Source: a bacterium
GTDB taxonomy: Bacteria; Patescibacteriota; Patescibacteriia; PEXW01
NCBI GenBank assembly: GCA_030689605.1
Contig: JAUYFT010000011.1
Location: 1 to 50,006, forward strand
DNA: 50,006 bases
Reading direction: 5' to 3'
Shown: one piece after another, positions 7,999 to 49,761 of the stretch
How the letters are laid out: each line of letters opens with the position of its first letter
Numbering within the stretch: position 1 is the stretch's first letter
Notes under the pieces: model-generated
Told to the model about the DNA's origin: nothing
Database searches by the model: none
The model's input: only the letters and a program-made list of their open reading frames with translations
Position numbers and translations under genes: made by a program

Positions 7999-8003
7999 GG
8001 GGG

Positions 8004-9131: not shown

Positions 9132-9152
9132 ATGGGTAGGGGGCTAAAAAAA

Positions 9153-9761: not shown

Positions 9762-9769
9762 AGAATTGA

Positions 9770-19326: not shown

Positions 19327-20193
19327 TTAGGTAAAAGACTGGAGCGTTTTTGAAATGTCGATTGTATCAATCCGCCGGGTGGCCAGCGGTTCGCCGTCAA
19401 GCTCGTGGACACGGTCAACCCACGTTGGTCGGATTTCCCGATACAGCAAGCCAGTGGGGATTTTATCACCCCACTCTAGCGCTCGGGCAAAGGCTTCGTA
19501 CTTGTTGCTGAAGTCGTGCTGCACCGACTCGACCTTGTAGACGCGCTTGAAGAACCAGCTAAAGGTATTGTGGTGGTTGAACGTCACGCACGGCTGCAGC
19601 ACGTTTACGTGGCTAAAGCCCGGGTGCTTCACCGCGTCGACGATGAGCTGGGTAAGCTGGCCGACGTCACCGGCAAAGCCCTGGCTGACGAACGACCCGC
19701 CGGCAGCAATGGCTAAAGCGACCGGATTGAGTGCTTGATCGACGGTGCCTTCGGGTGTGCTGGATGTGGGTTGGCCAAGCTCGGTGGTGGGCGCCATCTG
19801 CCCTTTCGTCAAGCCGTACACCTGGTTGTCATGGACAATGTAGGTAATATCAACGTTGCCGCGGAGCGCGTGGATAAAGTGGTTGCCACCTTCGCCGTAG
19901 CCATCACCATCACCACCCACGACAATAACCTTAAGATTCTTGTTAGCTAATTTCGCGCCAATTGCTGCTGGCAGCGCTCGGCCGTGTAAACCATGGAAGC
20001 CGTACGATTTTATGAAGCTAGACATGTTGCCGGAGCAGCCAATGCCGTAGACAATGAGCACGTTCGAGGGCTTCATCTCCAGTGCCGCAAGCGCGTTCTT
20101 CAAAGCCGTCCAAATGCCAAAGTCGCCGCAGCCCGGGCACCACGTGGGAAAATGTGTAGTATTAAAGTCCGTGTTCTTGAGCGGCGTGGTCAT
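19327..20193 (-). CDS. korB: 2-oxoacid:ferredoxin oxidoreductase, beta (TPP-binding) subunit
   Basis: TWCPGCGDFGIW and the TPP motif VVGGDGDGYGEGGNH. The start was trimmed to ATG 20193 (MTTPLKN), 2 nt after the korA stop. Confidence 0.85.
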   Translation of the reverse strand: MTTPLKNTDFNTTHFPTWCPGCGDFGIWTALKNALAALEMKPSNVLIVYGIGCSGNMSSFIKSYGFHGLHGRALPAAIGAKLANKNLKVIVVGGDGDGYGEGGNHFIHALRGNVDITYIVHDNQVYGLTKGQMAPTTELGQPTSSTPEGTVDQALNPVALAIAAGGSFVSQGFAGDVGQLTQLIVDAVKHPGFSHVNVLQPCVTFNHHNTFSWFFKRVYKVESVQHDFSNKYEAFARALEWGDKIPTGLLYREIRPTWVDRVHELDGEPLATRRIDTIDISKTLQSFT

Positions 20194-20195
20194 AT

Positions 20196-21968: not shown

Positions 21969-22253
21969 TCACCCAACAATGGCATCTTTTATCCGCTGCA
22001 TCTCGGCCTCGATGAGCGGGCCATCGTACTCGCCGGCGTGCGCGCTCGTGCCCTCGTAGGTCGGCGCTTTGGCGTCCAGGTGGACGCTCACCCGAATCTG
22101 CTCGCCCTGCACCTCGGCGTACACGTGGTAACGCGGAAAGGTTCCAGGCCCGGCGCGCTTGGCATAGCTGCCATTCCGCTCCAGGTGGTAGCCCAGACGC
22201 GTGAAAAAAACTCGAATGTTACCGAGGCTGGTAATTGAAAACTTGGCATTCAT
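21969..22253 (-). CDS. Hypothetical 94-aa protein, translationally coupled to acd
   Basis: ATG 22253 overlaps the acd TGA (ATGA). MNAKFSITSLGNIRVFFTRLGYHLERNG...HVYAEVQGEQIRVSVHLDAKAPTYEGTSAHAGEYDGPLIEAEMQRI. No family recognised. Confidence 0.5.
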   Translation of the reverse strand: MNAKFSITSLGNIRVFFTRLGYHLERNGSYAKRAGPGTFPRYHVYAEVQGEQIRVSVHLDAKAPTYEGTSAHAGEYDGPLIEAEMQRIKDAIVG

Positions 22254-29935: not shown

Positions 29936-31493
29936 AGGGACTGCACAGCAAGCTATGCCCGGTCATTTCTTTGGGCTTGGGAATATTCATAATGTTTAGC
30001 ACGGTCGGGGCAATGTCCGCGAGCTTGCCCGTCTTGCGGAGGCACAACTTGCGGTAAAGGTCATTCACGAAAATAAAAGGTACAGGGTTTGCCGAATGTT
30101 CGGTATCTACTTCGCCCGTTCGAACGTTCTTCAGCTCCTCGATATTTCCGTGGTCGGCGGTGATGAGGAGCGTACCATGAACCTGGCGGACGGCTGCCGT
30201 CAGCAGACCGAGCGCCCTATCCACTGCCTCCACGGCTTTAACCGCCGCGTGCATGTGGCCGGTATGCGCCACCATATCCGGCGCCGCGTAGTTCAGCGCG
30301 ATAAAATCGTGTGCCCCTTTTCGAATGTCCCGGCTGACATACTGCGTAACCTTAGCCGTAGACATAGCCGGTCGGCGATCGTACGTCGATACCATGGGTG
30401 AGGGAATGGAGACGCGATCTTCACCAGCCACAGGGTGGTCGTATCCGCCGTTGAAAAAGTAGGTCAGGTGGGCGTACTTCTCGCTCTCCGACACGTAGAG
30501 TTGCCGAAAAGCCTTAAGCGCCATGGGAAGAGTCTGGTTTATGTCCGGGCTCGGGTAGGCGGTAAGCACGCCCGGCAAGTCGGGACCAAAGTCCGTCATG
30601 GCCACGAACACTAGATTTTTTAAAACTTTATTCCGACGGAAGCCAGAGAATTTCGGCTGCACGAAAGCCTTTGTGAGTTGTCGCGCCCGGTCGCTGCGGA
30701 GGTTGAAGAAGATTATGGAATCATTGTCGCTTATCACGCTCGGCCGTTGCCCGTCGGGCACCACCACCGTTGGCTGGATGAATTCGTCGCTCTCGTTCCG
30801 GTTGTACGCTTCCATAATTGCCGCATCGGGATTCCTTGCACGCAAACCTTTCCCCAAGGTGAGAAGGTCATAGGTCTGCTGGATACGGTCCCAATGGAGT
30901 GCGCGATCCATGGCGTAGTACCGCCCGGTCACGGACGCGATGCGAGTGTTCGCCAGCTCTTTCTCCAGCTTCTTCAACATTTTGATTGCTGCGTACCGCG
31001 GGCTATCTCGACCATCGGTAAAAATATGCAAGGTTACGTGTGGCAGCTTCATGAGCCGGACGAACGTCAGCAGAGCTAGGAGGTGGTCAGGGCTGGAGTG
31101 AGCACTCTGGCTGTTACCGAGCATGCCAATGAGGTGGAGCGTGGAGTTGTGCTTCTGCACATGCCGCTGCGCCCGGATGAACGCCGGGTTACGGAAAAAT
31201 GCACCCGTAGTAATGGCGCGGGAAATTTGCACTTCGTCCTGCAGCACCACGCGGCCAGCGCCGATGTTCATGTGGCCGGCTTCGCTGTTCCCGTCCTGGC
31301 CACGGGAAAGGCCAACGGCTTTACCGCCAGCTTCCACGGACGTGTTTGGGTAGCGTTTTAGGAGCGCCTGGTAGTTCGGTGTCTTAGCCTGGGTGATGGC
31401 GTTCCACGGTCCAGGTTTGCCAATTCCCCAGCCATCCATAACCACCAGGACGACCGGTAGCTGTGGCTTCAGGATGGGGCAGCGCTCACGCAT
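29928..31493 (-). CDS. Divergent iPGM paralogue (alkaline-phosphatase superfamily)
   Basis: VVLVVMDGWGIG, DGNSEAGHMNIGAGR, TDGRDSP and ITADHGN are retained, but the SDGGVHSH box reads MLGNSQSAHSS. The start was trimmed to ATG 31493. There are 8-nt overlaps with eno (ATGCGTGA) and with gpmI (ATGCCTGA). Confidence 0.8.
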   Translation of the reverse strand: MRERCPILKPQLPVVLVVMDGWGIGKPGPWNAITQAKTPNYQALLKRYPNTSVEAGGKAVGLSRGQDGNSEAGHMNIGAGRVVLQDEVQISRAITTGAFFRNPAFIRAQRHVQKHNSTLHLIGMLGNSQSAHSSPDHLLALLTFVRLMKLPHVTLHIFTDGRDSPRYAAIKMLKKLEKELANTRIASVTGRYYAMDRALHWDRIQQTYDLLTLGKGLRARNPDAAIMEAYNRNESDEFIQPTVVVPDGQRPSVISDNDSIIFFNLRSDRARQLTKAFVQPKFSGFRRNKVLKNLVFVAMTDFGPDLPGVLTAYPSPDINQTLPMALKAFRQLYVSESEKYAHLTYFFNGGYDHPVAGEDRVSIPSPMVSTYDRRPAMSTAKVTQYVSRDIRKGAHDFIALNYAAPDMVAHTGHMHAAVKAVEAVDRALGLLTAAVRQVHGTLLITADHGNIEELKNVRTGEVDTEHSANPVPFIFVNDLYRKLCLRKTGKLADIAPTVLNIMNIPKPKEMTGHSLLCSPYA

Positions 31494-32745
31494 GGGTTGG
31501 GCGCCAAATAGCGAGGAGGCGGTTGTACTTGGCAAGCCGTTCACTTCGGGAGAGTGACCCTGTCTTGATGGCGTCGGCACCTACAGCAATGGCTAAGTCT
31601 GCAATGGTCGTATCGCACGTCTCCCCCGAGCGGTGCGAGACGATCACCTTGTACCCGTGCGCCTGCGCGAGCTTGATTGCCTCGACGGTCTCGGTGAGCG
31701 TCCCAATTTGGTTTAACTTGATGAGGATGGCATTACCGACCTGCGCGTCAATCCCGCGCTGCAGCCGTTGGACATTTGTCACGAACAGGTCATCGCCAAC
31801 GACCCACATATTTTTCGCAGCGAGCGCTTTAGTATGCGCTGGCCAGTGATCCCAGTCATCTTCTGCTAACCCATCTTCCACCGAAACGAGGTGGTACTTC
31901 TCGTGCCACTCCAAATACAGCGCCGTCAGCTGGTCTGCCGACAAGCCTTTACCCTCGAGTGCGAGTGGGTACGTTCCATCAGCTTTCGCAAACTCGCTCG
32001 CGGCGGCGTCCATGCCCAGCAGTACCTCCTGCCCAAGGGTGTAACCAGCGTTTGCCACAGCTTCGCTAATGAGCTGAAGCGGCTCTTCATTAGAGCGCAA
32101 CCGCGGCGCGTAGCCACCCTCATCGCCGACGAGCGTAGAGAATGCCCGGCCTTTGATTACGGCACCGAGCGCATGAAAAACTTCTGCCCCGCACCGAATC
32201 TGCTCCGGCAAATCTTTCTGCTGTGGCAGAATCATAAACTCCTGAAAACTCAAACCTGAATCAGCGTGCACCCCACCGTTTATGACGTTACACATGGGCG
32301 TGGGAAACCGTTCCCCAGCGTTGGCAAACCCAAACTGACTGGCAATGGATTGCCACAGCTCTTGCTTCGACGCTTTGGCGTTGGCATGGGCAATGGCAAG
32401 CGACGCACCGAGGATCGCGTTCGCCCCGAGCTTCGACTTGTTCGCTGTTCCGTCGAGCTTGATGAGTATTTTGTCTACCAACTGCTGCTCGCTAACGTCT
32501 TTTCCTTTGAGCGACTGGGCAATAACATCTTCAACATTCTGCAGTGCTCGCAGTACGCCTTTACCGCCGTAGCGTTCCGCATCGTTGTCACGGAGCTCTA
32601 AAGCTTCGTGGGTTCCGGTTGACGCACCAGAGGGTACGCTCGCTGTGCCGACGCTGCCGTCATCGAGTATCGCCGTGACCTGCAATGTAGGGTTACCGCG
32701 GGAGTCGAGTATTTCGAGCGCGTGGAGTTTCGTGAGGATTGCCAT
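31486..32745 (-). CDS. eno: Enolase
   Basis: ILDSRGNPTLQV...SVPSGASTGTHEALELRD...SHRSGETCDTTIADLA. Confidence 0.95.
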   Translation of the reverse strand: MAILTKLHALEILDSRGNPTLQVTAILDDGSVGTASVPSGASTGTHEALELRDNDAERYGGKGVLRALQNVEDVIAQSLKGKDVSEQQLVDKILIKLDGTANKSKLGANAILGASLAIAHANAKASKQELWQSIASQFGFANAGERFPTPMCNVINGGVHADSGLSFQEFMILPQQKDLPEQIRCGAEVFHALGAVIKGRAFSTLVGDEGGYAPRLRSNEEPLQLISEAVANAGYTLGQEVLLGMDAAASEFAKADGTYPLALEGKGLSADQLTALYLEWHEKYHLVSVEDGLAEDDWDHWPAHTKALAAKNMWVVGDDLFVTNVQRLQRGIDAQVGNAILIKLNQIGTLTETVEAIKLAQAHGYKVIVSHRSGETCDTTIADLAIAVGADAIKTGSLSRSERLAKYNRLLAIWRPTHA

Positions 32746-32749: not shown

Positions 32750-33922
32750 TTACGAGGTCTTGAGAAGTGGAGTAATGCCGGGCATGGGCTTGCCTTCCAA
32801 AAACTTCAGCATGGCGCCGCCGCCCGTGGAGAGGAAAGTGAATTTACTCCCGAGTTGCAAGGCGTTAATGGCGTCCAAGGTCTCGCCACCACCAGCAATG
32901 GTAACCGCGTGGGTCTCGCTCACCAGCTTCGCCAGGTTATCTGTCCCTTTCGCAAATTCCGGCAGCTCAAAGTAGCCCATGGGCCCGTTCCACACAATCG
33001 TCCCCGCAGTCTTGACGATCATGGCATACAAATCCAACGTCTCCGGACCAATATCCAAGATAAGCTGGTCATCAGGAACATTCGCCACCGCGGTTGTGGT
33101 CACGGGCACGCCGGCTTCGGGCCGCACAGCCATCACCACGTCAATAGGCACGCGCAATTTGTTCGTCGTCAGCGATAGATCTTTCACGTCAGCAACCATA
33201 CTCTCCTCAATGAGTGACTTACCCACCGCAATGCCCTGCGCCTTCAGCATGGTGTTTGCTAGGGCGCCGCCCAGAAGCACGTAGTCGCAGTGCTGCAGCA
33301 AGGCGCGTATGACGGGAAGCTTGGTAGAAATTTTTGCCCCACCGATGATGGCGACGAGTGGCCGCTTCGGCTTGGCAATCGCGCTGCCGAGGAAGGTAAC
33401 TTCCTTCTCGAGTTGAAAACCAGCGGCAGATGGGAGTAATGTGAGGAGTGTTGAGACCGAAGCAGCCTTGCGATGGGAAACCGAGAACGCATCATTCACC
33501 ACCACGTCACCTATAGCCGCCAAGCTGGCAGCGAAAGCTGGATCATCCTTGGCCTCACCAGGATTGAAGCGGAGATTCTCGAAGAGCACCACGTCACCTT
33601 CGCGTATGGCTTTGCTGCGGGTTATGGCCTCGGCAGTTCCAGGGATCTGCGGGGCGAACTGTACACTCGGCAGGCGCTCGGCTAGGTAGTCGAAAACTTG
33701 GCGGAGACTCAAGTGCACGTCGTGCGCGTTGTTTGGCTTGCCCAGGTGCGTGAGGAGGACGATGCGGCAGCGCTGGGACTTCAGGTACTCAATCGTCGGC
33801 AGTGCGGCCTTGATACGTGTCGCATCGCAAACCTTTCCGTCGCGGCACGGCACGTTGAAATCCACGCGAACAATAACCTGCTTCCCAGCAACGTCAAGAT
33901 CCTTCAGCGTGCGCAGTTCCAT
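32750..33922 (-). CDS. pgk: Phosphoglycerate kinase
   Basis: VIVRVDFNVP, ..LTHLGKP.., ..GGAKISTK.., ..GGGA... ATG 33922 (MELRTL) is preferred because a TGGTATAAT box sits 6 nt upstream. An alternative ATG is at 33940. Confidence 0.9.
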   Translation of the reverse strand: MELRTLKDLDVAGKQVIVRVDFNVPCRDGKVCDATRIKAALPTIEYLKSQRCRIVLLTHLGKPNNAHDVHLSLRQVFDYLAERLPSVQFAPQIPGTAEAITRSKAIREGDVVLFENLRFNPGEAKDDPAFAASLAAIGDVVVNDAFSVSHRKAASVSTLLTLLPSAAGFQLEKEVTFLGSAIAKPKRPLVAIIGGAKISTKLPVIRALLQHCDYVLLGGALANTMLKAQGIAVGKSLIEESMVADVKDLSLTTNKLRVPIDVVMAVRPEAGVPVTTTAVANVPDDQLILDIGPETLDLYAMIVKTAGTIVWNGPMGYFELPEFAKGTDNLAKLVSETHAVTIAGGGETLDAINALQLGSKFTFLSTGGGAMLKFLEGKPMPGITPLLKTS

Positions 33923-33928
33923 ACTGTT

Positions 33929-33937
33929 ATTATACCA
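33929..33937 (-). promoter_or_regulatory. Extended -10 element TGGTATAAT, 6 nt upstream of the pgk ATG (leaderless configuration)
   Basis: The minus strand reads TGGTATAAT-aacagt-ATG. Confidence 0.5.
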
Positions 33938-33961
33938 CAAAAATCACACTTTGGTGGCTAA

Positions 33962-36148: not shown

Positions 36149-37210
36149 CTACGGCGAAGCGAGTGCGAGCACCAGCGCAACAATTTCCTCGGGAGTTGCG
36201 GCGCCAGCAATGGTAACCAACTGCAACCGATCCAAGCTCTTCCCAACGAGGTCATCGAAGGTTGAATGGAAGCCGGTCGCGACGACCATTGGCTTCTTAT
36301 ACCGATACGCGAGTGCGACCTCGGCCAGCGTTCCGGCCCCACCAGGGAACACCACCAGTGCCTCGGTGCTGGGTATCCCTACGAATAGGTAGTCACCAAC
36401 ATTGATTGGCGTGTTTATCTCAATGGTGACGTAGGGATTGCAGGATCCAGGAATTGGCCCGGGTGTGCCAATAGTCTCACCACCAGCGTAGAGCGCACCG
36501 CGACTTGCAGCCTCCATGACACCGTCTGTACCACCGGTGACGACAATCGCACCTTGCTGAGCGAGCGCGTACCCTACAGCTTCGGCACACTGCAGCAAGC
36601 GTGCAGCGAGCGCTGGATCTTCGGGCAAATTCCCAGTGCTGGCACCGAGCACGCCAATACGCAAACGGCGTGGCGCAGTGACCATGTACCAGAACTGATG
36701 TTGCATGCCAGGCGTAAGGCTACAGGGTTGAAAAACACCCGTTTGGCGCATACCGAGGTTCTGATTTAGTGTGCGAATCCGAACGTTATCCTCACGCATA
36801 CGTGTCATAACCAGAACGCGCTTCGGTGTTTTCCGTATCTGCTCAAGGGCCTCGACTTTTAGCTGCCGAGCTACACCACGTTCTTGAGATTCAGGATCAA
36901 CAATTGTCTCCCAGATCCAAACGAAGTGTCCATGCGGAATATTGAGAATGAAGTTTCGGAGAGTTGTTGCACTTGCATGGCGTTCTGTAACTGCATCTAA
37001 CGACATGTCACTCCACCACGTAGCGCCGATAACTTTTCCATTATTCGTTGCTACGACGCAATGAACATTAGAAAAGCTCTTTTGCTCTTCCCAACGACGT
37101 TGCACTTCCGAAAACTTGAGCGTTTCCTTCCACGGTTCACCCGCGAATGCTCGCTGGTATGTATCGAGAATCTCGGGAAGATCTTCTGGAACGAATTTTC
37201 GAATAACCAT
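36149..37210 (-). CDS. Fusion protein: N-terminal GNAT acetyltransferase + C-terminal LOG/TIGR00725-type Rossmann (SLOG) domain
   Basis: The GNAT core is ..VVATNNGKVIGATWW...VDPESQERGVARQLK... The C-terminal half has TGGTDGVMEAASRGA and FPGGAGTLAEV, the GGxxGxM and PGGxGTxxE motifs of LOG-family proteins. SD GGAGGT precedes ATG 37210. Confidence 0.65.
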   Translation of the reverse strand: MVIRKFVPEDLPEILDTYQRAFAGEPWKETLKFSEVQRRWEEQKSFSNVHCVVATNNGKVIGATWWSDMSLDAVTERHASATTLRNFILNIPHGHFVWIWETIVDPESQERGVARQLKVEALEQIRKTPKRVLVMTRMREDNVRIRTLNQNLGMRQTGVFQPCSLTPGMQHQFWYMVTAPRRLRIGVLGASTGNLPEDPALAARLLQCAEAVGYALAQQGAIVVTGGTDGVMEAASRGALYAGGETIGTPGPIPGSCNPYVTIEINTPINVGDYLFVGIPSTEALVVFPGGAGTLAEVALAYRYKKPMVVATGFHSTFDDLVGKSLDRLQLVTIAGAATPEEIVALVLALASP

Positions 37211-37321
37211 GTTACCTCCATCTATGTTTGCTTGTTGTATTCTCCGTAACCTAACACACCGAAGTGCAGCGTCAAATGGGGTGGGTAAAATGCTAAGCGA
37301 ACTCCTTGGCAGTAGGTGAAG

Positions 37322-37349
37322 TTGACGCCCGCAACCTATGACATAGACT
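37322..37349 (+). promoter_or_regulatory. Possible promoter TTGACG-16-TAGACT for hutH
   Basis: TTGACG at 37322-37327 and TAGACT at 37344-37349, 28 nt before the ATG. Confidence 0.3.
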
Positions 37350-37377
37350 GCAAGTACCACATCTAAACCATGACGCT

Positions 37378-38919
37378 ATGCCTACCTACACGTTGAACGC
37401 AGGGCATGTACGCATTGAGGACATCGTACGCATCGCGCACGATCCTGCGGAGCACATCGCACTCGCGCCAGAAACACTCGCTGCAATTGAACGTTCGCGG
37501 GCAACGGTGAACGCCCTCACCGAGAAGCGAGCAGTCGTGTACGGCCTCACGACAGGTTTTGGCAAATTCAAAGATCGCTTCATCGATGGCGACCATATTG
37601 CGGAGCTGCAGGTGAACTTACTGCGCAGCCACTCGGTTGGCGTCGGTATGCCATTCCCGCTCCCCTGGGTGCGCGCCATGATGGTCATTCGCCTCAACTC
37701 GCTTGCCCGAGGGTTCTCTGGCGTACGTCCAGAATTGCTCAACCTCCTGGTGGGCATGCTGAATGCGAACGTCACACCTGAAGTACCGTCGAAAGGTTCA
37801 GTTGGCTCATCCGGCGACCTCGCTCCGCTCTCGCACATGGGGCTCGTGCTCATGGGTGAAGGTTTCGCTTGGTACAAGGGTGAGCGCCTCATTGGTGCCG
37901 AAGCCCTGAAGCGCGCCGGCTTGCAACCAATCCAGTTCGCCTCAAAGGAAGGACTCGCCTGGAACAACGGCACGTCGGTGCAGACTGGCGTGGGAACACT
38001 CGCCACGCACCTCGGAGTTCGGCTGACGAAGATTGCTGACATTGCCGCCGCGCTCTCTATGGAGGCGCACAACGGTCTCACCGCGGCGTACGACCCACGC
38101 CCGCACCAGCTCCGCGGGCATGAAGGTCAGATCGTGGCAGCTGCCAACATCCTGGAACTCCTCAAAGGCTCAACTTACATCAACAGCGGTACTGCAGCGA
38201 AGCGCGTGCAGGATGCCTACAGCCTACGTTGCGCCCCGCAGGTCCACGGTGCCACACGCGAAGCAATCCGCTACGCCGAGCACGTCATGAGTACGGAGGT
38301 GAACGCAGTCACCGATAACCCGCTCATCTTCGCCGATACCGCCGAAGCAATTTCCGCTGGGAACTTCCACGGCGAACCAGTCGCCATTGCCATGGATACG
38401 CTCGGCATTGCCGTTTCGGAACTCGCGAACATTTCCGAGCGGCGCACCGCGAAGCTCCTCGACTCGGCAACGAACGAGGGCTTGCCCATGTTCCTCATCC
38501 CGCCGGAACGCGGCGGGCTGCACAACGGCTACATGATTGCGCAGTACACCGCCGCCGCGCTCGTTTCAGAGAATAAGGTGCTCGCCCATCCCGCATCGGT
38601 CGACTCCATTCCAACGTCAGCCAACCAGGAAGACCACGTGAGCATGGGTACCATTGCGGCTCGCAAGGCCATGGAAATTGCGGGCAACGCAGTGGACGTC
38701 TTCGCGATCGAATTCATGTGCGCGACACAAGGTGTAGACCTACGCGAGAAAGCGCAGCTCGGCGTCGGGACGAGAGCAGCGTACGATGTCATTCGCGGCC
38801 GGGTGCCAATGCTCGATGGTGACCGCATCCTCGCGCCGGATATGCAAGCAATCGCCGAGCTCATCCGTGATGGCAGCATCGAAGCAGCCGTCGTGAAAGC
38901 TGGCGTGCAGCTGGGCTAA
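37378..38919 (+). CDS. hutH: Histidine ammonia-lyase (MIO-dependent aromatic amino acid lyase family)
   Basis: YGLTTGFGKF, LQVNLLRSHSVGVG (the Ser-His pair typical of HAL rather than TAL/PAL), and the MIO segment GSVGSSGDLAPLSH. 513 aa. Confidence 0.85.
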   Translation: MPTYTLNAGHVRIEDIVRIAHDPAEHIALAPETLAAIERSRATVNALTEKRAVVYGLTTGFGKFKDRFIDGDHIAELQVNLLRSHSVGVGMPFPLPWVRAMMVIRLNSLARGFSGVRPELLNLLVGMLNANVTPEVPSKGSVGSSGDLAPLSHMGLVLMGEGFAWYKGERLIGAEALKRAGLQPIQFASKEGLAWNNGTSVQTGVGTLATHLGVRLTKIADIAAALSMEAHNGLTAAYDPRPHQLRGHEGQIVAAANILELLKGSTYINSGTAAKRVQDAYSLRCAPQVHGATREAIRYAEHVMSTEVNAVTDNPLIFADTAEAISAGNFHGEPVAIAMDTLGIAVSELANISERRTAKLLDSATNEGLPMFLIPPERGGLHNGYMIAQYTAAALVSENKVLAHPASVDSIPTSANQEDHVSMGTIAARKAMEIAGNAVDVFAIEFMCATQGVDLREKAQLGVGTRAAYDVIRGRVPMLDGDRILAPDMQAIAELIRDGSIEAAVVKAGVQLG

Positions 38920-40001
38920 CGCTTGAAGCAGGCGGCGAACAGTTCTGCTGAGCCATAGCCAAGGCCTGGCGCATCTGGTGCGTGCATGCTCCCGCCTTGC
39001 ACGGCTGGGCCGAATGCTTTCGGATCGTCAATGAAGGTGAACGCGTTCAATGCCGTCGTGCGCACTGCGTGCGTGGCGGCGAAGTGCACGCCAGCGTACG
39101 TCCCCAGTGCGCCTTCAATCATAGAGCCAAGCATGTAGCCAGCGTTGTGCGCAGTGGCAGCATTTGCGAGTTCGTGCGCACCCCAAACCCCGCGAGACTT
39201 GGCCAGCTTAATGTTGAAGAGCTGCGCTGCGCCTGCGGTTGCTGCGGCGGCCGCATCTTCTGCAGTGTAGGTTGATTCGTCGAGCATGATTTGCATGCCC
39301 GTACGCTCATGCAACGTGCGGAAATCTGCTGGGGTACAGTTTGCAGGAAGTGGTTGCTCCACCCACGCCAAATTGGCGTCAGCGAATGTGGTTAACGCCT
39401 GTACTGCAGCGTCGACCGTCTTCCAACCCTGATTTGCATCCACGAAGAGTGTACGCTCTGGCCCAATCACTGCACGCACCGCTTGCAGGAGTTCATGCTC
39501 ACGGTCCACGTCCATGCCCACTTTCACTTTGAAAACTGTTATCCCCTGGTCAACGGCGGTCGCAACGAGTGCATTCGCCTGCGCCAAATCAACCATGGGA
39601 ATAGCAGCCTCTACAGGTACTGATTTTGCAGGACCGTAGTAGGCGTACACTGGCTTGCTCTCTTCTTGCCCCAGCGCGTCATGCAAGGCAACGTCAATGC
39701 CACAGGCCGCGGCGTACGCTGTCGGGATGATCGTAGCGAGAACCTTGCCCCACTGTTCGGGCTGCTGGTACTGCTGCCCAGCAATTACACCAGCTGCCTG
39801 CTGCCCAGCGGCAATGGTAGAAGCCTGCGTTTCACCTCGCGGTTCCCAGTACGCTGGGCACTCGCCGTACCCAACCACGCCAGCTTCGGTACTGACGCGC
39901 ACAATTGCATAGTCCAGCTGCACGAGCCGGACACCAGAGTACACGAACGGGTGCTTCAGCTTGTACGTCAAAGGCGCAACGTCGACACGGGTAATTTTCA
40001 T
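38916..40001 (-). CDS. Enolase-superfamily enzyme, muconate-lactonizing subgroup (dipeptide epimerase / N-acylamino-acid racemase-like)
   Basis: KxK motif FKVKVG, metal ligands DANQGW / WVEQP / MLDES, and the second catalytic Lys in FNIKLAKSRG. Its ATG overlaps the stop of the upstream M20 gene (ATGA). Confidence 0.75.
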   Translation of the reverse strand: MKITRVDVAPLTYKLKHPFVYSGVRLVQLDYAIVRVSTEAGVVGYGECPAYWEPRGETQASTIAAGQQAAGVIAGQQYQQPEQWGKVLATIIPTAYAAACGIDVALHDALGQEESKPVYAYYGPAKSVPVEAAIPMVDLAQANALVATAVDQGITVFKVKVGMDVDREHELLQAVRAVIGPERTLFVDANQGWKTVDAAVQALTTFADANLAWVEQPLPANCTPADFRTLHERTGMQIMLDESTYTAEDAAAAATAGAAQLFNIKLAKSRGVWGAHELANAATAHNAGYMLGSMIEGALGTYAGVHFAATHAVRTTALNAFTFIDDPKAFGPAVQGGSMHAPDAPGLGYGSAELFAACFKR

Positions 40002-41119
40002 AGATTGGGCAGGAGCAAGAATGTCCGGTAGAGTGCCACGCCTCGGTCTAACGCCGTGAGCGCAATGCTCTCATCAACTTGGTGGATCGTTGATGAATCG
40101 CCGGGTCCCAGGACGAAAACTCGGCCCCAGCGTGTGAACAGCGACGCTTCGGTCCAACCGGGTGCGTACATAATTTCTGCAGGTGCGCCGGTCTCCTTGC
40201 GGATAACCTGCAAGCAGTACTGCACCCACGCCTCACTACGAGCCGTGAAGAAACCATCGCCGCTGAATGGGAAGGTAACCTGAGCGCTGGCATCAACCCG
40301 CCGAACAAGTGCGCGCAGCGCACGCTTCTCCTCAGCGAGTTTTTCCTGCGGCACGAGGCGCCGATTCACCGCGAGCGTCGCCAACGGCGCAACGGTATTC
40401 ACGCCAACGCCACCGCTCATCGTGCCGTACGATAAGGTTGCCCGACCGAACGCTGGGTGCCGGCGCGCGTCAATGCGCTTCTCGTACACGCGTAAGGCTT
40501 GGAGAACTTTTGCCAATTTCAGGATTGCGTTCTCCTGGCCGTTCGTGGCGTACCGCACACGGCTTGCGTGCTTGCCGATACCGGTCGTGGTGATGCACGC
40601 GTCGAAGCAGGCCTTCTGCCCCAAGCGCACTCGGTTGTCGGTCGCTTCACCCACAATGATGGTTGCCGAACGTGCTGGCCGCTTCTGCGCGAGCAGTGCG
40701 CCACCAACAGCATGTCCTTCCTCGTCGCCATCGAGGAGGATAGTTACAGGGCGCTGGATACGCTTATGCGTCTCGGCGAACGCCGTAGTGAAAGCAGCAA
40801 TACTGCTCTTCATATCCGAAATCCCTAAGCCGTAGAGGCGTTTTCCCCTCCCAACGACTTTCACTGGCGGGGTCGCCCAGCTCCCATGGACATTCGCAGT
40901 ATCGGTGTGGCCAGAGAAGACTAGAGGCCGACCTGGAAGATTCTGACCGTACTCTGCCCGCACGTTCCACCGTCGTACACCGTCGCTCTGGTAGGCAGTC
41001 ATGCGCACGCGCGCACCCAAGCGAGCGTACGTCTGCGCCAGAACCTTCGCCACCTGTTGGTTCGAAATCTTCAACTGGCTATCGGTACCGACGAGCGTGC
41101 GGAGGAGAGGGATGAGCAT
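39998..41119 (-). CDS. M20-family metallo-amidohydrolase (ArgE/DapE/N-acyl-amino-acid deacylase-like), copy 1
   Basis: FSGHTDT, GLGISDMKS, LDGDEEG, VGEAT and a C-terminal ..STIHQVDE.. give the His/Asp/Glu/Glu/His metal-ligand pattern. ATG 41119 sits 7 nt after a TATACT box. Confidence 0.8.
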   Translation of the reverse strand: MLIPLLRTLVGTDSQLKISNQQVAKVLAQTYARLGARVRMTAYQSDGVRRWNVRAEYGQNLPGRPLVFSGHTDTANVHGSWATPPVKVVGRGKRLYGLGISDMKSSIAAFTTAFAETHKRIQRPVTILLDGDEEGHAVGGALLAQKRPARSATIIVGEATDNRVRLGQKACFDACITTTGIGKHASRVRYATNGQENAILKLAKVLQALRVYEKRIDARRHPAFGRATLSYGTMSGGVGVNTVAPLATLAVNRRLVPQEKLAEEKRALRALVRRVDASAQVTFPFSGDGFFTARSEAWVQYCLQVIRKETGAPAEIMYAPGWTEASLFTRWGRVFVLGPGDSSTIHQVDESIALTALDRGVALYRTFLLLPNL

Positions 41120-41142
41120 ATGCCCTAGTATACACTGCACTC

Positions 41143-41180
41143 AATAAGAAAACACCTCGTTCGGAACGGACGAGGTGTTC
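41143..41180 (-). terminator. Intrinsic terminator AACACCTCGT-loop-ACGAGGTGTT + UUUCUUAUU
   Basis: 10-bp stem at 41151-41179, with a U-rich tail on the minus strand. It lies 36 nt after the stop of the racemase-GNAT gene. Confidence 0.7.
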
Positions 41181-41215: not shown

Positions 41216-42706
41216 CTACTTAATCTTCTTGACAAGGAACAGTCGTGGATCAGGCATGTCGACGATTTCACCAGTCTCAGGTTTGAGCTTCTTGGAAATA
41301 GTCTCCTGCCGAACGCCATCGAGCTCGTGGTAGCCGCGGCTCTCGCGGTAGAGGTGTTGCGTCGCAGTGTTATCCACGGACGTGCGAACCACCACCGTGT
41401 CGAAACTATCCGGCAGCGCTTCGAGTCGCGCGTCAATGAGCTTATGGCTAAGATTGCGCCCACGATACGCTGGCGCCACGCCGAGCTCGGCCATGTAGTA
41501 GGACGACGCCACTGGTATGTACGCCGAAACATACGGGACGATATCCTCGTAGCGATCCACTGGAACCGCGCCACTGAAACCAACCACGGTGTCACCGTCC
41601 AACGCCAGGAACAGCAACCCTTGCGGGTCGGCAGCAATCTTGCGGAGGTCGGCAGCACCGTCTTCACTCTTGAAACGCTCGTTGTACGGAGGATCGTAGA
41701 ACACCCGAGCGTAGAGAGTACCGACAGCTTGCGCGTACGGCTCGAATGCCTCGGCCGAGGTAATGCGGTGAAGGCACACCGTATCGTCCAGCAAGCGATC
41801 GCCGACCTCCGCAGTGCCATCATCGTACAGCACTTCAATGGGACCGCTGATGCGCGCCCCAGCGAATTCCTTGCCGTCGTAGGCAACGGAAATGCTAATG
41901 GGTAAACCGCTCGGCTGCATCACCGAAAGGTTCACCGGGCCGCCGGCGTCAAGCGCGCACTTCACTCCTAACGCTGTTGTTCCCGTACCGCACGCTGTCT
42001 CGGCGTACATGGTGTTGGAATCCCGCACGAACACGTAGGGGTCAATAGCGTACTGACCATCGTGTTCCGTGTAGAAAATCACACCCGCCGCTTCGAGGTC
42101 GCGCAACTTCTCTTCGGTGAGAATCCGCTCAGCGTGCTGCATGCGTGCGTCGCGATTCAACCCCGCAATGCCGTCACTCTCCGGAATCAGCAGGTGGCTG
42201 ATGCCGTACAAGTGCACGAGCGTTGCGTCGAACGGCTTCCCGTTCACCGTGGGCTGGCGCTTCTCTGTGCAGGTCGCCTCAGGGCGCACAGGCATAGTGG
42301 CGAAGATGTCCAGGATGTGATTCTGGTCATCCAGCACGACTTCAGCATGGAGTACGCCATCGAAGCCCGAGACTTCCATTGGCACATCCAGACGATTCCA
42401 TGAACGCGTAATGTGCTCGAGGGCGAATGGATTCAATCCGACATCACCAGTAAGGAACGCCTTCGTGATGAGCATAACGGTTGATCGCGTGGCGTTGCCA
42501 CAGAACTCGCCACCCATCATCTGCAGGCGGCAAACCGTTTTGGGCAGCGTCGACAATTCCAAGTACCCTACCTGCTCGCCTTTCTCATCCTGCTTCAGGA
42601 TGACTTCTTTGGCGATTTCCCCGTGGTACTGCCGGGGAATCAGGTCGTGAACCAAGGCGGTATTGTTCCCGCCTGGTTTCACCATTGTGAAACGAATGAG
42701 ACCCAT
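41216..42706 (-). CDS. Fusion protein: N-terminal DapF-fold PLP-independent racemase/epimerase (CntK-like motifs) + C-terminal GNAT N-acyltransferase
   Basis: VKPGGNNTALV, MMGGEFCGNATRS (first catalytic Cys) and ETACGTGTTALG (second catalytic Cys) define the two-Cys DapF fold. The C-terminal ~170 aa (LLFLALDGDTVVGF...YYMAELGVAPAYRGRNLSHKLI) is a GNAT. SD GAAGGAGG precedes the ATG. Confidence 0.7.
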   Translation of the reverse strand: MGLIRFTMVKPGGNNTALVHDLIPRQYHGEIAKEVILKQDEKGEQVGYLELSTLPKTVCRLQMMGGEFCGNATRSTVMLITKAFLTGDVGLNPFALEHITRSWNRLDVPMEVSGFDGVLHAEVVLDDQNHILDIFATMPVRPEATCTEKRQPTVNGKPFDATLVHLYGISHLLIPESDGIAGLNRDARMQHAERILTEEKLRDLEAAGVIFYTEHDGQYAIDPYVFVRDSNTMYAETACGTGTTALGVKCALDAGGPVNLSVMQPSGLPISISVAYDGKEFAGARISGPIEVLYDDGTAEVGDRLLDDTVCLHRITSAEAFEPYAQAVGTLYARVFYDPPYNERFKSEDGAADLRKIAADPQGLLFLALDGDTVVGFSGAVPVDRYEDIVPYVSAYIPVASSYYMAELGVAPAYRGRNLSHKLIDARLEALPDSFDTVVVRTSVDNTATQHLYRESRGYHELDGVRQETISKKLKPETGEIVDMPDPRLFLVKKIK

Positions 42707-42945
42707 GGGTCCCTCCTTCGGGTTGCATGCATCGCGTACCCAATGTACGCGAAGCTTTCCGTTTTCAACGTACGTTTGGCATAAACGTCTGTTTCACCCA
42801 AGCCTAGCAGAGGGTCATGGGGTGTCAAACTCCTTCTCGTTTTGGAAATTTGCCAAAATGGAAACCCCATGGTAGGACAGTGAGGAAAAGCCAGCACTCA
42901 GCGGAGGGTTGGGAAATTGTCACTTTGAAAAAACAAGGAGAGAAC

Positions 42946-44187
42946 ATGCAGAAACTTACGGAGCCAGTGCTCCCATTGCTCCAGCAGCTCTGCGCGTTGC
43001 CATCATGGTTTGGAACTTTCAACGACCGTGCAGCCGACGAAGTTAGCTACGCGCAATTCGTTGAAGACTACCTCGCCACGCACGTGCCAACCCTCAAACT
43101 ATCCCGCGTACCACTCGAAGACGGTTCTGGACGGTACTCGGTTCTCGCGAAAACCCCTGGGCCAGACATTGAGCTCCTCGTTGCGGTGCACCTGGATACC
43201 GTGCTGCCTTCAACGCAGATCGATTCGTCTGGAGCATGGGTTGATAACTTCACTATCGGAGATCGGTATCACGATCAAACCTACCTCCGTTTAGGGGCAG
43301 CGGACAACAAAGGTGGTGCAGCGGCATTGCTCACTGCGCTTCAGAGCGTCACGCTGAAAAAGGTCGCTGCGCTTTTCTACGTCGATGAAGAGCGCTACTT
43401 CGCTGGCATGGAAGCGGTGCTCGCAGCCCAGCCATCCTGGGGTTGGAAACCGAAACGAGTGCTCATCATCGAGCCAACTGGTTTGGAAATTCGCAACACC
43501 CACCGTGGGTGCGTAGAATTCAAAGCCCGTGTTCAGGGCGCTTCTGCCCACGCGGCGTACCCAGAACTTGGCAAGCACGCATTCGAAGCATTCCTGAAGG
43601 CGTACACCGCTTTCAGGAATCGTATCGACAACGCTGACGCGGTGCGTCGATCCGTTCATCCGAACCAGCAACTCACGGCAGTGAACGTCGCGGGCATTAC
43701 CTGTGGCCAACGTGACGCCGACGCAATGGCGCTTCCGGGCAATGCGAAAACGAACTGCCTGACACCGGTACGGGTGGTACCGAACAAGAAAGCTGATTTC
43801 GTCGAGGTCGTATTCGATATCCGGCCTGGCGACCTAACGGCGAGTGCGAGCGACCTCACGAGACTCTTCACCGACTGTGTTGCAACGACGAATTGCACGG
43901 CCGACATTGTGAGCGTGGCGATCGATAAGGTTGGCATGAATACCAAGGCTATTGACTTCAGTGACCTTGGCGCAATTGTTGCCGACGTTACTGCTGCTAC
44001 ACCGAAATTCGCCTACATGAACGGCTACGGTGAAGGCGCAATGATCGCTCAACAGTGGGGCGTACCTGTTGCGTACTTTGGACCGAAGGGCGAAAACACG
44101 CATGAGTTTGGTGAGTGGGTGCTCATCCCATCACTGGATGTTGCGGCAGAGGCGTACGCTCGCTTGCTCTCGAGCTTCATCTCGTAA
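42946..44187 (+). CDS. M20-family metallo-amidohydrolase, copy 2 (divergently transcribed from the racemase-GNAT gene)
   Basis: VAVHLDTV, LGAADNKGG, YVDEERY, IIEPT and ..NTHEFGEWV. SD AAGGAGA precedes ATG 42946. Confidence 0.8.
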   Translation: MQKLTEPVLPLLQQLCALPSWFGTFNDRAADEVSYAQFVEDYLATHVPTLKLSRVPLEDGSGRYSVLAKTPGPDIELLVAVHLDTVLPSTQIDSSGAWVDNFTIGDRYHDQTYLRLGAADNKGGAAALLTALQSVTLKKVAALFYVDEERYFAGMEAVLAAQPSWGWKPKRVLIIEPTGLEIRNTHRGCVEFKARVQGASAHAAYPELGKHAFEAFLKAYTAFRNRIDNADAVRRSVHPNQQLTAVNVAGITCGQRDADAMALPGNAKTNCLTPVRVVPNKKADFVEVVFDIRPGDLTASASDLTRLFTDCVATTNCTADIVSVAIDKVGMNTKAIDFSDLGAIVADVTAATPKFAYMNGYGEGAMIAQQWGVPVAYFGPKGENTHEFGEWVLIPSLDVAAEAYARLLSSFIS

Positions 44188-46631: not shown

Positions 46632-46706
46632 GGGTACGTAGCTCAGCCCGGTTAGAGCATCTGACTGTGAATCAGAGGGTCGTGGGTTCAAATCCCATCG
46701 TACCCC
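46632..46706 (+). tRNA. tRNA-His (anticodon GTG at 46667-46669), discriminator C73, no genome-encoded G-1, CCA not encoded
   Basis: Hand-folded cloverleaf. Acceptor GGGTACG/CGTACCC, D arm GCTC/GAGC, anticodon stem TCTGA/TCAGA with loop CTGTGAA, T arm GTGGG-TTCAAAT-CCCAT. The base at -1 is T. Confidence 0.9.
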
Positions 46707-46718
46707 CAATCTTTTTTA

Positions 46719-46750
46719 GGGCCTGTACATCTGTACCGGTCCTTTTTTTA
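46719..46750 (+). terminator. Terminator-like hairpin GGCCTGTACA-TC-TGTACCGGTCC + T7 after tRNA-His
   Basis: Imperfect ~10-bp stem followed by TTTTTTT at 46743-46749. Confidence 0.55.
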
Positions 46751-47131
46751 TTTAACCCATATAAGTGCGGCCTTTGCACAAATCGTCACCGCATCGTACA
46801 GCGGCAGGGTAATATGCTCTTGCTGCAAGAAGAGCGGCAGTTCCGTGCAGCCGAGGACTATAGCTGAGGCGCCCTGCGACTGGAAGTCATTGCATATTGC
46901 TTGCAGCGCTTGCACATCAGCTGAGTTCTGCAGCCCTGCCATAACGTGCGTGATGACTTCGGTAATACTGTCTTGCTGTACCACTGTTAGGCTAATCGGT
47001 ACGGCACCCTGACCTTTCAGAGCGTCCACGTACAAGCCAGACTTCGCCGTCGTTTCAGAAGAGAGGACGCCAACCGTTGCATGACCAAAAGCCGCATGTC
47101 GAATTTTTCTACCGCTTCCTGTAATATTTAT
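46748..47131 (-). pseudogene. Aspartate/glutamate racemase family gene, 5'-truncated (C-terminal ~125 codons remain)
   Basis: Open frame ..HATVGVLSSETTAKSGLYVDALKGQG...ASAIVLGCTELPLFL carries the second-Cys GCTE motif. The N-terminal half with the first catalytic Cys is missing. The frame is closed by a stop at 47132-47134, where the sequence turns AT-rich. Confidence 0.6.
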
Positions 47132-47301: not shown

Positions 47302-47921
47302 CTAAATTTTATTTTCCGATTTTATAATTGTCCAAACATCTTCGCCAATTTGATCTGGTTTTTTTGCTAAAATTGTTTTCATCCCCAATTTTTCAGCTGG
47401 TAAAAGATTATTCTCATTGTCATCGATAAATATACACTCGCCCGGTAGTACGAGAAGATCTTTGACAGCCAACTCATAAAATTCTTTTTGCGGTTTTACA
47501 AAACCAACTTCGCAGGACAAATAAACTTTATCGAAATAATCATAGCCATTACGTTCACGAGTAATATCGGCCATATAAGGGAAAGTGTCCGATAAAACTG
47601 CTGTAACATACCCATTGGTTTTCAAATTTTTAAGCATATTAACAACCTCTTCATAAAGTTCGAAATGTTCATTAAATAATTTGCGAGCCAGCTCCTTCAC
47701 ATTTACCGGCATTGATTTATTTATACGTTGCGAAAATTTCAACCAGAAACTATCTTCATTCAATAAACCCTTATCGAATTGTTCAAAAAGATCGCGAGTC
47801 ATTTTTTTGCATCTTCTTTTTCTTCCGCAGATAGACTAAATATTGACTCTACATCATCAAAAAAATACTTATTTATTGCTTTAACCACCCCATTATAATC
47901 AAATATAATTGCTTTTATCAT
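47302..47921 (-). pseudogene. HAD-IA hydrolase split by a frameshift in an A-run (N-terminal 40 codons 47921-47799, remainder 47802-47302)
   Basis: Hand translation upstream of the listed ORF gives MIKAIIFDYNGVVKAINKYFFDDVESIFSLSAEEKEDAKK* (HAD motif I) in another frame. The two frames meet at GCAAAAAAATG (47800-47810). The downstream part has VLSDT and FIDDNENN motifs. Confidence 0.6.
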
Positions 47922-48588: not shown

Positions 48589-49761
48589 CTAATATACACG
48601 ATAGTAAAATGGAAGTTTTTCCGCATCTCCAGAGACATAGATTTTACTTATCGAACGATTCTCCCACCGGAGGTCATCGAGGTACCGGATAGAAAAACAT
48701 TTTCGTTTCGTATCGTACACGGGCACGCCATGTGTTGGGAGAATCTGCGTCGCACGGTTAATCGGTAACACGCCAAGCCGTCCTTGTTTCGGTGAAACAG
48801 TGAGCGGAAGTGCATGCGGGACTGCACGAGGAATGAGCCGAAACTCATCGCGAAGACGGAGGTACGCGAAATACTGAATAAGCGCGCGTGTCGTCTGCAC
48901 CGTCAATCGGCGCAACAATTTATTCGCCTCTCTCGAGATTGGCCGTTGTCCATCGTAAGCACGGTACGCTGCACGTACCATTCCTTCCGGTACGTTGCGG
49001 ACGTTCACTATGTGAAAGACTGAGGAGAAAGCACTACTGTATTTCTTCATGAAGTCACGCTCTTTACGAGCATGCAGTGCTGCAAACTCTTGACACTTCT
49101 GCGTGAATGCTTTCCGAAATCCCGGAACTCTACGCTCGGAGGAACCAAGATCAATTATCCGTAGGGTGTCCGTCAGGCTGAAAATTTTCGCAAGGTACTG
49201 AAGGGAGCGCTGGTACCGTCGCGCTTCGCCAGGGGTAACGTGTGCGAACGGGGCGAAAGGACCTTCGGTGAAAACGGTGAGCCGGCAGCCCTTCGGGTAC
49301 ACTTTGCCCACCAGATTCGTAATTATGTGCAAGCGCTGAAGCATTAATACCTCACCCAAATCAGGTAGAGTACGATTCGTTTTGAGTGTAACTGGCGTCT
49401 TGAATGGAAAACCGAGAATCGTGAGTTCAATGCGCTTCTTCCGTTTGGTGAAATAGCGAATCCGATCGAGCCATTCAGCACGACTATTAACAATGAACGA
49501 CTGCGGTCCAAAACGAATATTCGGGTTGAGAAAAATTGCTAAAATTCGATCCTCAAGACTTCCAGAACGGCGCGGGATTTTCGGCGTCGAGACCTTTAGG
49601 AGTTCACGTGCTACCTCATGCATGCTCAAATATATGTCTTTTGCAAATCGAACCTTCGTCTTGCGATCCTGCAAGTTCCGAAATGGGGTATACGGGTAGA
49701 CGTACGGATTAGATTGCATAGGGAAAGAAAAATGAGCAAAGTGTGGAAGCACTTTGCTCAT
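48589..49761 (-). CDS. DIT1/PvcA-family protein (isonitrile synthase-like), divergent
   Basis: ELTILGFPFKTPVTLKTNRTLPDLGEVLMLQRLHIITNLVGKVYPKGCRLTVFTEGPF parallels the family pattern fvLPaFPfKSpN..K.lg.lPDlgE..aL..L......iYpPGa...I.SDG.vF. The C-terminal LTVSPKQGRLGVLP....LPTHGVPV parallels RLSIHp...K.gi.L....tPWH..v. Confidence 0.5.
   Translation of the reverse strand: MSKVLPHFAHFSFPMQSNPYVYPYTPFRNLQDRKTKVRFAKDIYLSMHEVARELLKVSTPKIPRRSGSLEDRILAIFLNPNIRFGPQSFIVNSRAEWLDRIRYFTKRKKRIELTILGFPFKTPVTLKTNRTLPDLGEVLMLQRLHIITNLVGKVYPKGCRLTVFTEGPFAPFAHVTPGEARRYQRSLQYLAKIFSLTDTLRIIDLGSSERRVPGFRKAFTQKCQEFAALHARKERDFMKKYSSAFSSVFHIVNVRNVPEGMVRAAYRAYDGQRPISREANKLLRRLTVQTTRALIQYFAYLRLRDEFRLIPRAVPHALPLTVSPKQGRLGVLPINRATQILPTHGVPVYDTKRKCFSIRYLDDLRWENRSISKIYVSGDAEKLPFYYRVY

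Follow-up and report, generated by a model that had tools for sequence, protein, structure and literature searches.

The fusion gene and its expression signals

The DNA analysed here, called the window throughout, is a stretch of 50,006 nucleotides (positions 1 to 50,006 of contig JAUYFT010000011.1, assembly GCA_030689605.1) from a bacterium of the Patescibacteriota. It encodes a 496-residue protein that joins a racemase domain of the two-cysteine CntK/HisR type to a C-terminal GNAT domain. The gene and its own elements are as follows.

41216..42706, minus strand: fusion gene, 496 amino acids (open reading frame (ORF) list, full-length homologues, AlphaFold2 model)
41813..42706, minus strand: CntK/HisR-type racemase domain, residues 1 to about 298 (NCBIfam, PDB alignments, Foldseek)
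41219..41779, minus strand: predicted GNAT acyl-CoA N-acyltransferase domain, residues about 310 to 496 (Pfam, domain model, Foldseek, shared motifs)
42712-42717, minus strand: Shine-Dalgarno sequence AGGAGG, 5 nt upstream of the fusion ATG (sequence reading)
41141..41179, minus strand: intrinsic-terminator-like hairpin (stem 41151-41179, U-rich tail 41141-41150)

An earlier reading of the letters alone (the sequence-only reading) had described a single 496-residue ORF here without stating its strand. The ORF list bears this out, placing the gene on the minus strand with an ATG start and a stop codon at 41216-41218, and the translation contains the three racemase motifs then quoted: KPGGNNTALV (residues 10-19), GGEFCGNATRS (residues 65-75) and ETACGTGTTALG (residues 236-247). 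The ribosome-binding site and terminator claimed for the gene were also found. AGGAGG, a strong Shine-Dalgarno sequence, stands 5 nt from the ATG, and an 11-bp GC-rich hairpin, 36 nt past the stop codon, is followed by UUCUUAUU (fold z-score -2.9); a simple consensus scan missed this hairpin, which was found by folding. In three related loci from other assemblies (L001, L003 and L004), a hairpin and U-tract of different sequence in each case come right after the fusion gene, so that transcriptional separation from the downstream gene looks conserved. The term 'monocistronic', used in the sequence-only reading, is apt for transcription but not for function: the gene is part of a conserved neighbourhood of several genes linked to histidine. 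Rfam models scanned against the window and five related loci matched tRNAs only, with no T-box or riboswitch.

The racemase domain resembles histidine racemases

By sequence, the N-terminal half is a distant relative of CntK and HisR and an equivalog of neither. It matched the NCBIfam CntK model NF033599 with an E-value of 2.6e-19 (69.8 bits; equivalog cut-off 300) and the HisR model NF052224 with an E-value of 5e-18 (65.7 bits; equivalog cut-off 400). The Pfam DAP_epimerase match was marginal (E 0.1, 13 bits against a cut-off of 34.7), and there was no DapF equivalog among the NCBIfam matches. Precomputed domain assignments of homologues in a large protein collection pair PF26317, labelled CntK_N, with PF00583. 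We built an AlphaFold model of the whole fusion on 34 homologues (pLDDT 92.3, pTM 0.82), whose sole dip lies at the linker (residues ~301-310). In this model the N-terminal domain has a DapF-like two-lobed fold, and the top Foldseek matches are 6jis, 6jiw and 9cr6 (E 3e-20 to 1e-17; target TM-scores 0.76-0.80). CntK (6jis) is the best PDB structure match, with an E-value of 3e-20, and 9cr6 is HisR; lower in the ranking come proline racemases, hydroxyproline epimerases and DapF, which agrees with the CntK-like assignment made from the letters. Sequence and structure thus both place the fusion nearest to CntK and HisR, the sole two proteins proven to racemise histidine.

CntK (S. aureus, 6jis) and HisR (F. 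nucleatum, 9cr1/9cr6) share with the fusion the DapF-like fold, the two catalytic cysteines, the EFCGN and E-x-x-C-G/A-S/T-G motifs and the proposed histidine-binding residues. They differ from it in being stand-alone proteins of ~270 residues without a GNAT domain, and their identity to the fusion is ~20-23%. In HisR the catalytic residues are C67 and C209, and N18, E65, G68, N69 and E206 have been proposed to bind histidine; the position of E65 is occupied by Ala in DapF and by Leu in hydroxyproline epimerase (PMC11602996). In HMMER alignments, C69 and C239 of the fusion, one in each lobe, align with the two catalytic cysteines of HisR, and N14, E67, G70, N71 and E236 correspond to N18, E65, G68, N69 and E206. 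All seven fusion residues are invariant in the 34 fusions, at identities down to 28%, and both cysteine motifs are kept by every racemase of the permuted and split forms described below. Together, these comparisons strongly suggest that histidine is the substrate of the racemase domain.

We consider it highly improbable that the domain is instead a divergent DapF-like epimerase of diaminopimelate (DAP)/lysine or cell-wall metabolism, or a racemase of another amino acid. The fold is common to DapF, and the DAP pathway likewise combines acylation, deacylation and epimerisation; DapF and DapE resemble the fusion locus in bringing an epimerase of this fold and an M20 deacylase into one pathway, and the M20 neighbours of the fusion resemble DapE and ArgE. 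However, DapF models fail on the fusion (Pfam E 0.1; no equivalog match), and we rejected a DapF assignment on this ground. The EFCGN and ETAC motifs match CntK/HisR, with Glu two residues before the first cysteine where DapF has Ala, and the neighbours are genes for histidyl-tRNA synthetase (HisRS) and histidine ammonia-lyase (HAL), hisZ, hisG and hisIE, none of them a dap, lys or mur gene.

The GNAT domain

The C-terminal half matched Pfam Acetyltransf_1 over residues 339-459 (42.1 bits; cut-off 20.7) which, with the NCBIfam matches of the first half, supports the proposed order of a two-cysteine CntK-type racemase followed by a GNAT domain. A separate model of residues 305-496 (pLDDT 95.7) matched many acetyl-CoA GNAT structures in Foldseek (E 1e-10 to 1e-7), among them PaiA, tabtoxin-resistance protein (TTR), Naa60, RimI, BAR/PAT, ArsN and YncA. 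Several of these act on an alpha-amine, whether of free amino acids and their analogues (BAR/PAT, ArsN, YncA and TTR) or of peptides (Naa enzymes and RimI), and the nearest solved GNATs by sequence are N-alpha-acetyltransferases (Naa30, E 0.012). The subfamily is marked by the motifs F..PPYxE, ELGV..YRxxGxx, RTSxxN and DxRxFL, which the permuted and split forms have in common. Invariant in the 34 fusions are P340-Y341-x-E343, Y404, R441-T442, N446 and D486-x-R488, and most fusions keep a CoA pyrophosphate loop of the form [RQ]xxGx[GA], for example RRFGLG or RGKGIA. These features argue fairly strongly that the domain uses an acyl-CoA. Such a donor should be available, because the window also has genes for a two-subunit 2-oxoacid:ferredoxin oxidoreductase and for an ADP-forming acyl-CoA synthetase (19327-21947 and 22250-24304, both minus strand); the two together could supply acyl-CoA and conserve ATP.

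The fusion family and its domain orders

A word-indexed search found more than 100 clusters (90% identity) with the racemase-GNAT architecture; most of the named ones belong to Patescibacteria (Roizmanbacteria, Microgenomates and Gracilibacteria). When all 1.84 billion representatives of a 50%-identity library were searched with a profile, 1304 proteins scored at E <= 1e-30. Of the top 150, about 33 are racemase-GNAT proteins from end to end, and about 19 matched in two stretches, with the racemase C-terminal. By inspection of ORFs, we confirmed the GNAT-racemase order as a single ORF of 443-503 residues in L019, L050, L079, L082 and L085, the hosts of this order being Saccharibacteria, Microgenomates and a Micavibrio metagenome-assembled genome (MAG). 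In an Erysipelotrichaceae MAG (L025) the two parts are split into adjacent genes, a 177-residue GNAT followed by a 269-residue racemase. The existence of two domain orders and a split form argues strongly that both activities belong to a shared pathway. With 34 full-length homologues from independent assemblies and more than 100 clusters of the same architecture, the fusion is not a frameshift or assembly artefact, which answers the objection, foreseen in the sequence-only reading, that the halves might be two separate genes. In a species-level genome collection there was no close relative of the fusion, the best match being 38% identical.

The proteins are named in their sources as 'GNAT family N-acetyltransferase', as 'hypothetical' or, by JGI, as 'histidine racemase', and look-ups of the clusters returned almost no names; the current label 'GNAT family N-acetyltransferase' hides the racemase half. 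The similarity network of the HisR study was limited to proteins of 250-308 residues and therefore excluded the fusions (PMC11602996). Literature searches for CntK with GNAT, and for D-histidine with acetyltransferase and racemase, returned nothing relevant. The earlier statement that no characterised enzyme of this architecture is known thus agrees with the generic names in the sources and with the literature searched. Both domains are of known kinds; their covalent pairing, the conserved set of partners and the link to HisRS are undescribed in that literature.

The GNAT domain might act on a macromolecule such as HisRS or a tRNA, or might regulate the racemase or bind a ligand for it, but this is very unlikely. 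It would account for the closest PDB sequence match, Naa30, being a protein N-terminal acetyltransferase, and for Foldseek matches that include, besides RimI, the protein acetyltransferase HP0935 and a tRNA cytidine acetyltransferase; HisRS is moreover a frequent neighbour. Such matches are generic for the GNAT fold, however, and the strict, repeated coupling to a racemase (in both orders and as split genes), together with the amidohydrolase described below, argues for a shared small-molecule substrate.

Neighbouring genes in the window

The genes around the fusion are as follows.

36149..37210 (also given as 36149-37360), minus strand: second GNAT, fused to a SLOG cluster-4 / TIGR00725 domain (Pfam, NCBIfam)
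37378..38919, plus strand: HAL (hutH equivalog, 648.6 against 539 bits; conserved in the clade)
38916..40001, minus strand: partner enzyme of the enolase superfamily, MLE subgroup (Pfam MR_MLE, PDB match)
39998..41140, minus strand: partner M20 ArgE/DapE-family deacylase, real start probably ATG 41122 (Pfam, NCBIfam, PDB)
42817..44187, plus strand: second M20 ArgE/DapE-family hydrolase, divergent, real start probably near 42946 (Pfam, NCBIfam); kept in L001 and L003
44296..45087, plus strand: Cof-type HAD phosphatase (Pfam, NCBIfam); kept in L001 and L003
45217..46614, plus strand: HisRS, 465 amino acids as called (hisS equivalog, 338 against 287 bits)
46632..46707, plus strand: tRNA-His (GTG anticodon), after the HisRS gene (ARAGORN, Rfam)

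The partner M20 protein, which adjoins the fusion in L003 and L004 too, matched the NCBIfam DapE-ArgE subfamily below its cut-off and has DapE and ArgE as its PDB matches. The best PDB match of the MR_MLE partner is 2p88/2p8b/2p8c (E 1.7e-36), which we take to be BC0371 of B. cereus; BC0371 is the best solved relative of this partner gene and not of the fusion itself. BC0371 clusters with the Ala-Glu epimerases, whose signature residues it lacks; it is an N-succinyl-Arg/Lys racemase, its substrates being N-succinyl derivatives of basic amino acids (PMC2948282). The window protein has the catalytic K-x-K motif and the metal ligands in alignment, and it matched no NCBIfam equivalog (DgcA, 105 bits against a cut-off of 400). 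In dipeptide epimerases, a DxD motif binds the free amino terminus of the dipeptide. This motif (D-F-D in YkfB) aligns to A-L-N in the window protein and is absent from three orthologues, which speaks for an N-acyl-amino-acid racemase rather than a dipeptide epimerase. From its sequence, then, the MR_MLE partner is probably an N-acyl-amino-acid racemase.

The HAL of the window has Ser-Ser-Gly (GSVGSSGDLAPLSH) as its triad forming the methylidene-imidazolone (MIO) group, where Ala-Ser-Gly is usual, and still passes the hutH cut-off. The GNAT domain of the SLOG fusion belongs to the same subfamily as that of the racemase fusion (hhalign probability 89.5%, E 2e-6) and has the F..P[YW]xE and R..DN motifs in common with it; BLASTP between the two window GNATs found nothing, and profile comparison alone linked them. 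A stand-alone SLOG gene and separate GNATs occur in the same cluster of L001.

Conserved partners across loci

We surveyed gene neighbourhoods at 85 distinct loci and the window with tblastn probes; 23 loci are GNAT-linked. An amidohydrolase is encoded within 3 kb of the gene in 22 of these 23, and at 3.4 kb in L052. Most Patescibacteria loci have a VanX-type M15 peptidase immediately downstream, and these partners keep the VanX zinc and catalytic motifs SxHxxGxAxD and ExxH. The clade formed by the window, L001, L003 and L004 has one or two ArgE/DapE-type M20 deacylases and an MR_MLE enzyme instead of M15; the GNAT, MR_MLE and M20 types are co-encoded in all four and not in M15-type loci. We also found racemase-M20 fusions (P0094/L007 and L063) and adjacent racemase and M20 genes (L016). 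The ORF after the L007 fusion is not a GNAT, and the neighbours in L007, L016 and L063 are unrelated genes (HAD, nucleoside hydrolase, GntR and ABC transporter).

Of the 23 GNAT-linked loci, 15 have a HisRS or HAL gene no farther than 5-7 kb away, a frequency far above chance for a gene that, like hisS, is usually single-copy. In two uncultured Clostridia MAGs (L035, 8236-14120; L052, 335-6284) the gene order is hisZ-hisG-[racemase-GNAT]-hisIE-hisS-M15, and stand-alone relatives in Clostridia and Tissierellia lie ~2.6 kb from HAL. The preference for histidine also rests on this association with HisRS, HAL and his-operon genes, which makes histidine the most likely substrate. The HisRS of the window has its nearest relatives in Parcubacteria/Patescibacteria (~50% identity), only four relatives exceeding 57%, which points to a sparsely sampled Patescibacteria-like lineage as the probable source.

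Some loci show further peculiarities. L001 has two full-length HisRS genes within 8 kb of the fusion, encoding 433 and 466 residues (5506-6807 and 13004-14404), and the window HisRS resembles the 466-residue copy. The Micavibrio MAG locus (L019) has a HisRS of 695 residues (7772-9859) with an N-terminal extension of ~260 residues, directly upstream of the GNAT-racemase fusion, an M15 peptidase and a class I/II aminotransferase. A TrpR/YerC-like helix-turn-helix protein of ~100 residues is encoded immediately upstream of the racemase in L005, L006, L007, L010, L012-L015, L041, L050, L079 and L082, and may be a dedicated regulator; its gene is absent from the clade of the window.

The adjacent HisRS and tRNA-His genes, the extra HisRS copies of some loci (L001) and the origin of the partners in families related to dipeptidases and dipeptide epimerases would all fit a GNAT-fold domain that uses an aminoacyl-tRNA, such as His-tRNA, to build an X-D-His dipeptide, which M15 or M20 enzymes and the enolase-type epimerase would then degrade. 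We regard this as extremely improbable, in that the domain resembles classical GNATs that use acetyl-CoA, most family members keep the canonical CoA pyrophosphate loop, the window HisRS is an ordinary hisS product, and the enolase-type enzyme has no DxD motif for a dipeptide amino terminus. Fem-type transferases also differ from the single GNAT domain of the fusion.

A possible cycle through N-acyl-D-histidine

We tentatively favour, with confidence a little short of even, a bifunctional histidine racemase and acyltransferase that makes N-acyl-D-histidine, the reaction being reversed by the partner amidohydrolase. In this scheme, the cofactor-independent two-cysteine racemase domain would interconvert L- and D-histidine, and the GNAT domain would transfer an acyl group from an acyl-CoA (acetyl or succinyl) to the alpha-amine of one enantiomer, most likely D-histidine. 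Free histidine would thereby be drained into N-acyl-D-histidine, a compound that HisRS, HAL and ordinary L-specific peptidases are not expected to accept. In most lineages, the VanX-type M15 enzyme would deacylate N-acyl-D-histidine directly; in the clade of the window, the MR_MLE racemase would convert it to N-acyl-L-histidine, from which the M20 deacylases would free L-histidine. VanX-type peptidases are D-specific by family. N-acyl-D-histidine is favoured as the product because both partner sets, M15 on the one hand and an N-acyl racemase with L-type deacylases on the other, process an N-acyl-D-amino acid, which makes a moderate case for D-histidine as the trapped enantiomer.

The sequence-only reading had proposed that acylation traps one enantiomer and so pulls the racemisation in one direction. 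The trap is plausible and fits the partner enzymes (M15; N-acyl racemase and M20), but a simple one-way pull is probably not the full account, because the partners would return the product to L-histidine; a park-and-retrieve cycle or a pair of synthesis and recovery routes fits better. The likely histidine substrate, the conserved histidine neighbourhood and the partners that most likely close the cycle to L-histidine had escaped that reading.

Several points weigh against the cycle. The fusion family is known from sequences, predicted structures and gene neighbourhoods alone, and because the CntK and HisR scores lie far below the curated cut-offs, histidine specificity is something we infer. 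The CoA loop of the window protein reads R-G-R-N-L-S, against RxxGxG/A. A conserved terminator stands between the fusion and the downstream M20 gene, and the GNAT step is not universal, because some racemases are paired with M20 or M15 and have no GNAT. That the M15 partners are D-specific is assumed from a distant resemblance (~40 bits to VanX and DdpX). Finally, a racemase, an acyltransferase and return enzymes would together form a closed loop that consumes acyl-CoA, and any gain would need regulation of the steps or a role of the product itself.

The main rival is salvage of D-histidine to L-histidine, in which the fused racemase only speeds equilibration and all scavenged histidine is delivered as L-histidine to HisRS in an organism that does not synthesise it. 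Parcubacteria/Patescibacteria are generally held to be auxotrophic, HisRS and tRNA-His stand next to the fusion cluster in the window, and the nearest HisRS relatives are from Parcubacteria/Patescibacteria. D-histidine is rare in nature, which speaks against salvage. A described D-to-L conversion pathway of Geobacillus consists of a GNAT succinyltransferase, NSAR and an M20 L-desuccinylase (bioRxiv 10.1101/2022.03.03.481873). All three enzyme types are adjacent in the clade of the window, which thus shares with Geobacillus the clustering of the same three superfamilies and the logic of acylating, racemising and deacylating. Unlike in Geobacillus, however, the window GNAT shares its polypeptide with a direct amino-acid racemase, the window enolase-type enzyme is nearer to the BC0371/dipeptide-epimerase branch than to the NSAR/OSBS branch, and most members of the fusion family pair with M15 and have no enolase-type racemase. 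A direct racemase would make the acyl route redundant, as use of L-histidine alone would pull D to L, and the fusion would feed L-histidine into the D-acylation site. The carriers of L035 and L052, moreover, have the fusion within an operon for histidine biosynthesis and hence produce histidine themselves. Salvage therefore seems unlikely to us.

The placement of M15 directly downstream of the racemase in most lineages, the racemase-M15 pairs without a GNAT, and the racemase-M20 fusions, which tie the product or substrate of the hydrolase directly to the racemase, could also be explained if the GNAT acylated L-histidine to N-acetyl-L-histidine and the racemase brought in D-histidine that M15 frees from a D-histidine-containing amide. 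This is quite unlikely: no source of such an amide is known, N-acetyl-L-histidine as an end product needs no racemase fused to its synthase, and an enolase-type racemase with an L-type deacylase, as in the clade of the window, makes sense only with an N-acyl-D-amino acid.

If N-acyl-D-histidine is made, one can only speculate on its role, whether as histidine reserve, imidazole buffer or metal ligand, and the case for a reserve or buffer is weak. A bolder form of the cycle casts N-acyl-D-histidine as a dedicated metabolite in host-dependent bacteria with small genomes, Patescibacteria among them, made by a natural dynamic kinetic resolution enzyme (a racemase with a D-selective acyltransferase) as a protected histidine reserve, imidazole pH buffer or metal ligand that translation and catabolism leave untouched, with M15 or MR_MLE and M20 as the return route. 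We hold this to be doubtful. Were it true, it would indicate a role for D-histidine and for stand-alone HisR-type racemases, and full conversion of an L-amino acid to an N-acyl-D-amino acid would amount to a dynamic kinetic resolution in one protein, which is of biocatalytic interest. Metabolism in bacteria of the candidate phyla radiation is mostly inferred from annotation; the fusion family and its fixed partners define a testable D-histidine pathway beside the HisRS gene in these bacteria.

Relation to other known systems

Staphylopine is the sole established use of D-histidine, CntK feeding D-histidine to CntL and CntM for its synthesis. We rejected a staphylopine (CntKLM) cluster, as Pfam scans of the large ORFs of the window revealed no nicotianamine-synthase-like (CntL) or opine-dehydrogenase (CntM) gene. 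The DapF/DapE system, discussed above for its likeness, is set apart by its neighbours too, which at the fusion are histidine genes and not dap or lys genes.

In VanC-type enterococci, VanT joins a serine racemase to a membrane domain that resembles acyltransferases, and its gene lies near one for a VanX-type D,D-peptidase, a likeness to the fusion. It differs in that its racemase depends on pyridoxal phosphate and has an unrelated fold, its acyltransferase belongs to an unrelated family and is thought to serve uptake, and the system serves cell-wall precursors. In the DgcN/DgcA pathway for D-glutamate, N-acetylation is followed by racemisation of N-acetyl-D-Glu, giving an irreversible 'racemisation' (PMC12363236). 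That pathway handles acidic amino acids and has no direct racemase, and the DgcA score of the window MR_MLE protein is far below the cut-off.

Other features of the window

The GC content of the window is ~55%, an estimate by reading, not computed. Just after tRNA-His, an Asp/Glu racemase ORF (46748-47035, minus strand) matches only the C-terminal half of its Pfam profile (positions 124-211), and a HAD hydrolase ORF (47302-47802, minus strand) likewise matches only the C-terminal part of its profile; both may be gene remnants or have mis-called starts. A DIT1/PvcA-family protein (isonitrile / dityrosine biosynthesis family), unexpected in a small-genome organism resembling Patescibacteria, is encoded at 48589-49761 (minus strand). 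Near the other end, an AbiEii-type nucleotidyltransferase toxin (2319-3041, minus strand) and an overlapping upstream ORF without a Pfam match (3007-3642, minus strand) may form a type IV toxin-antitoxin pair, and a PD-(D/E)XK nuclease (960-1718) lies nearby. Tandem, overlapping paralogues of cofactor-independent phosphoglycerate mutase (28331-29935 and 29928-31580, minus strand) adjoin the genes for enolase (31486-32745) and phosphoglycerate kinase (32750-33940).

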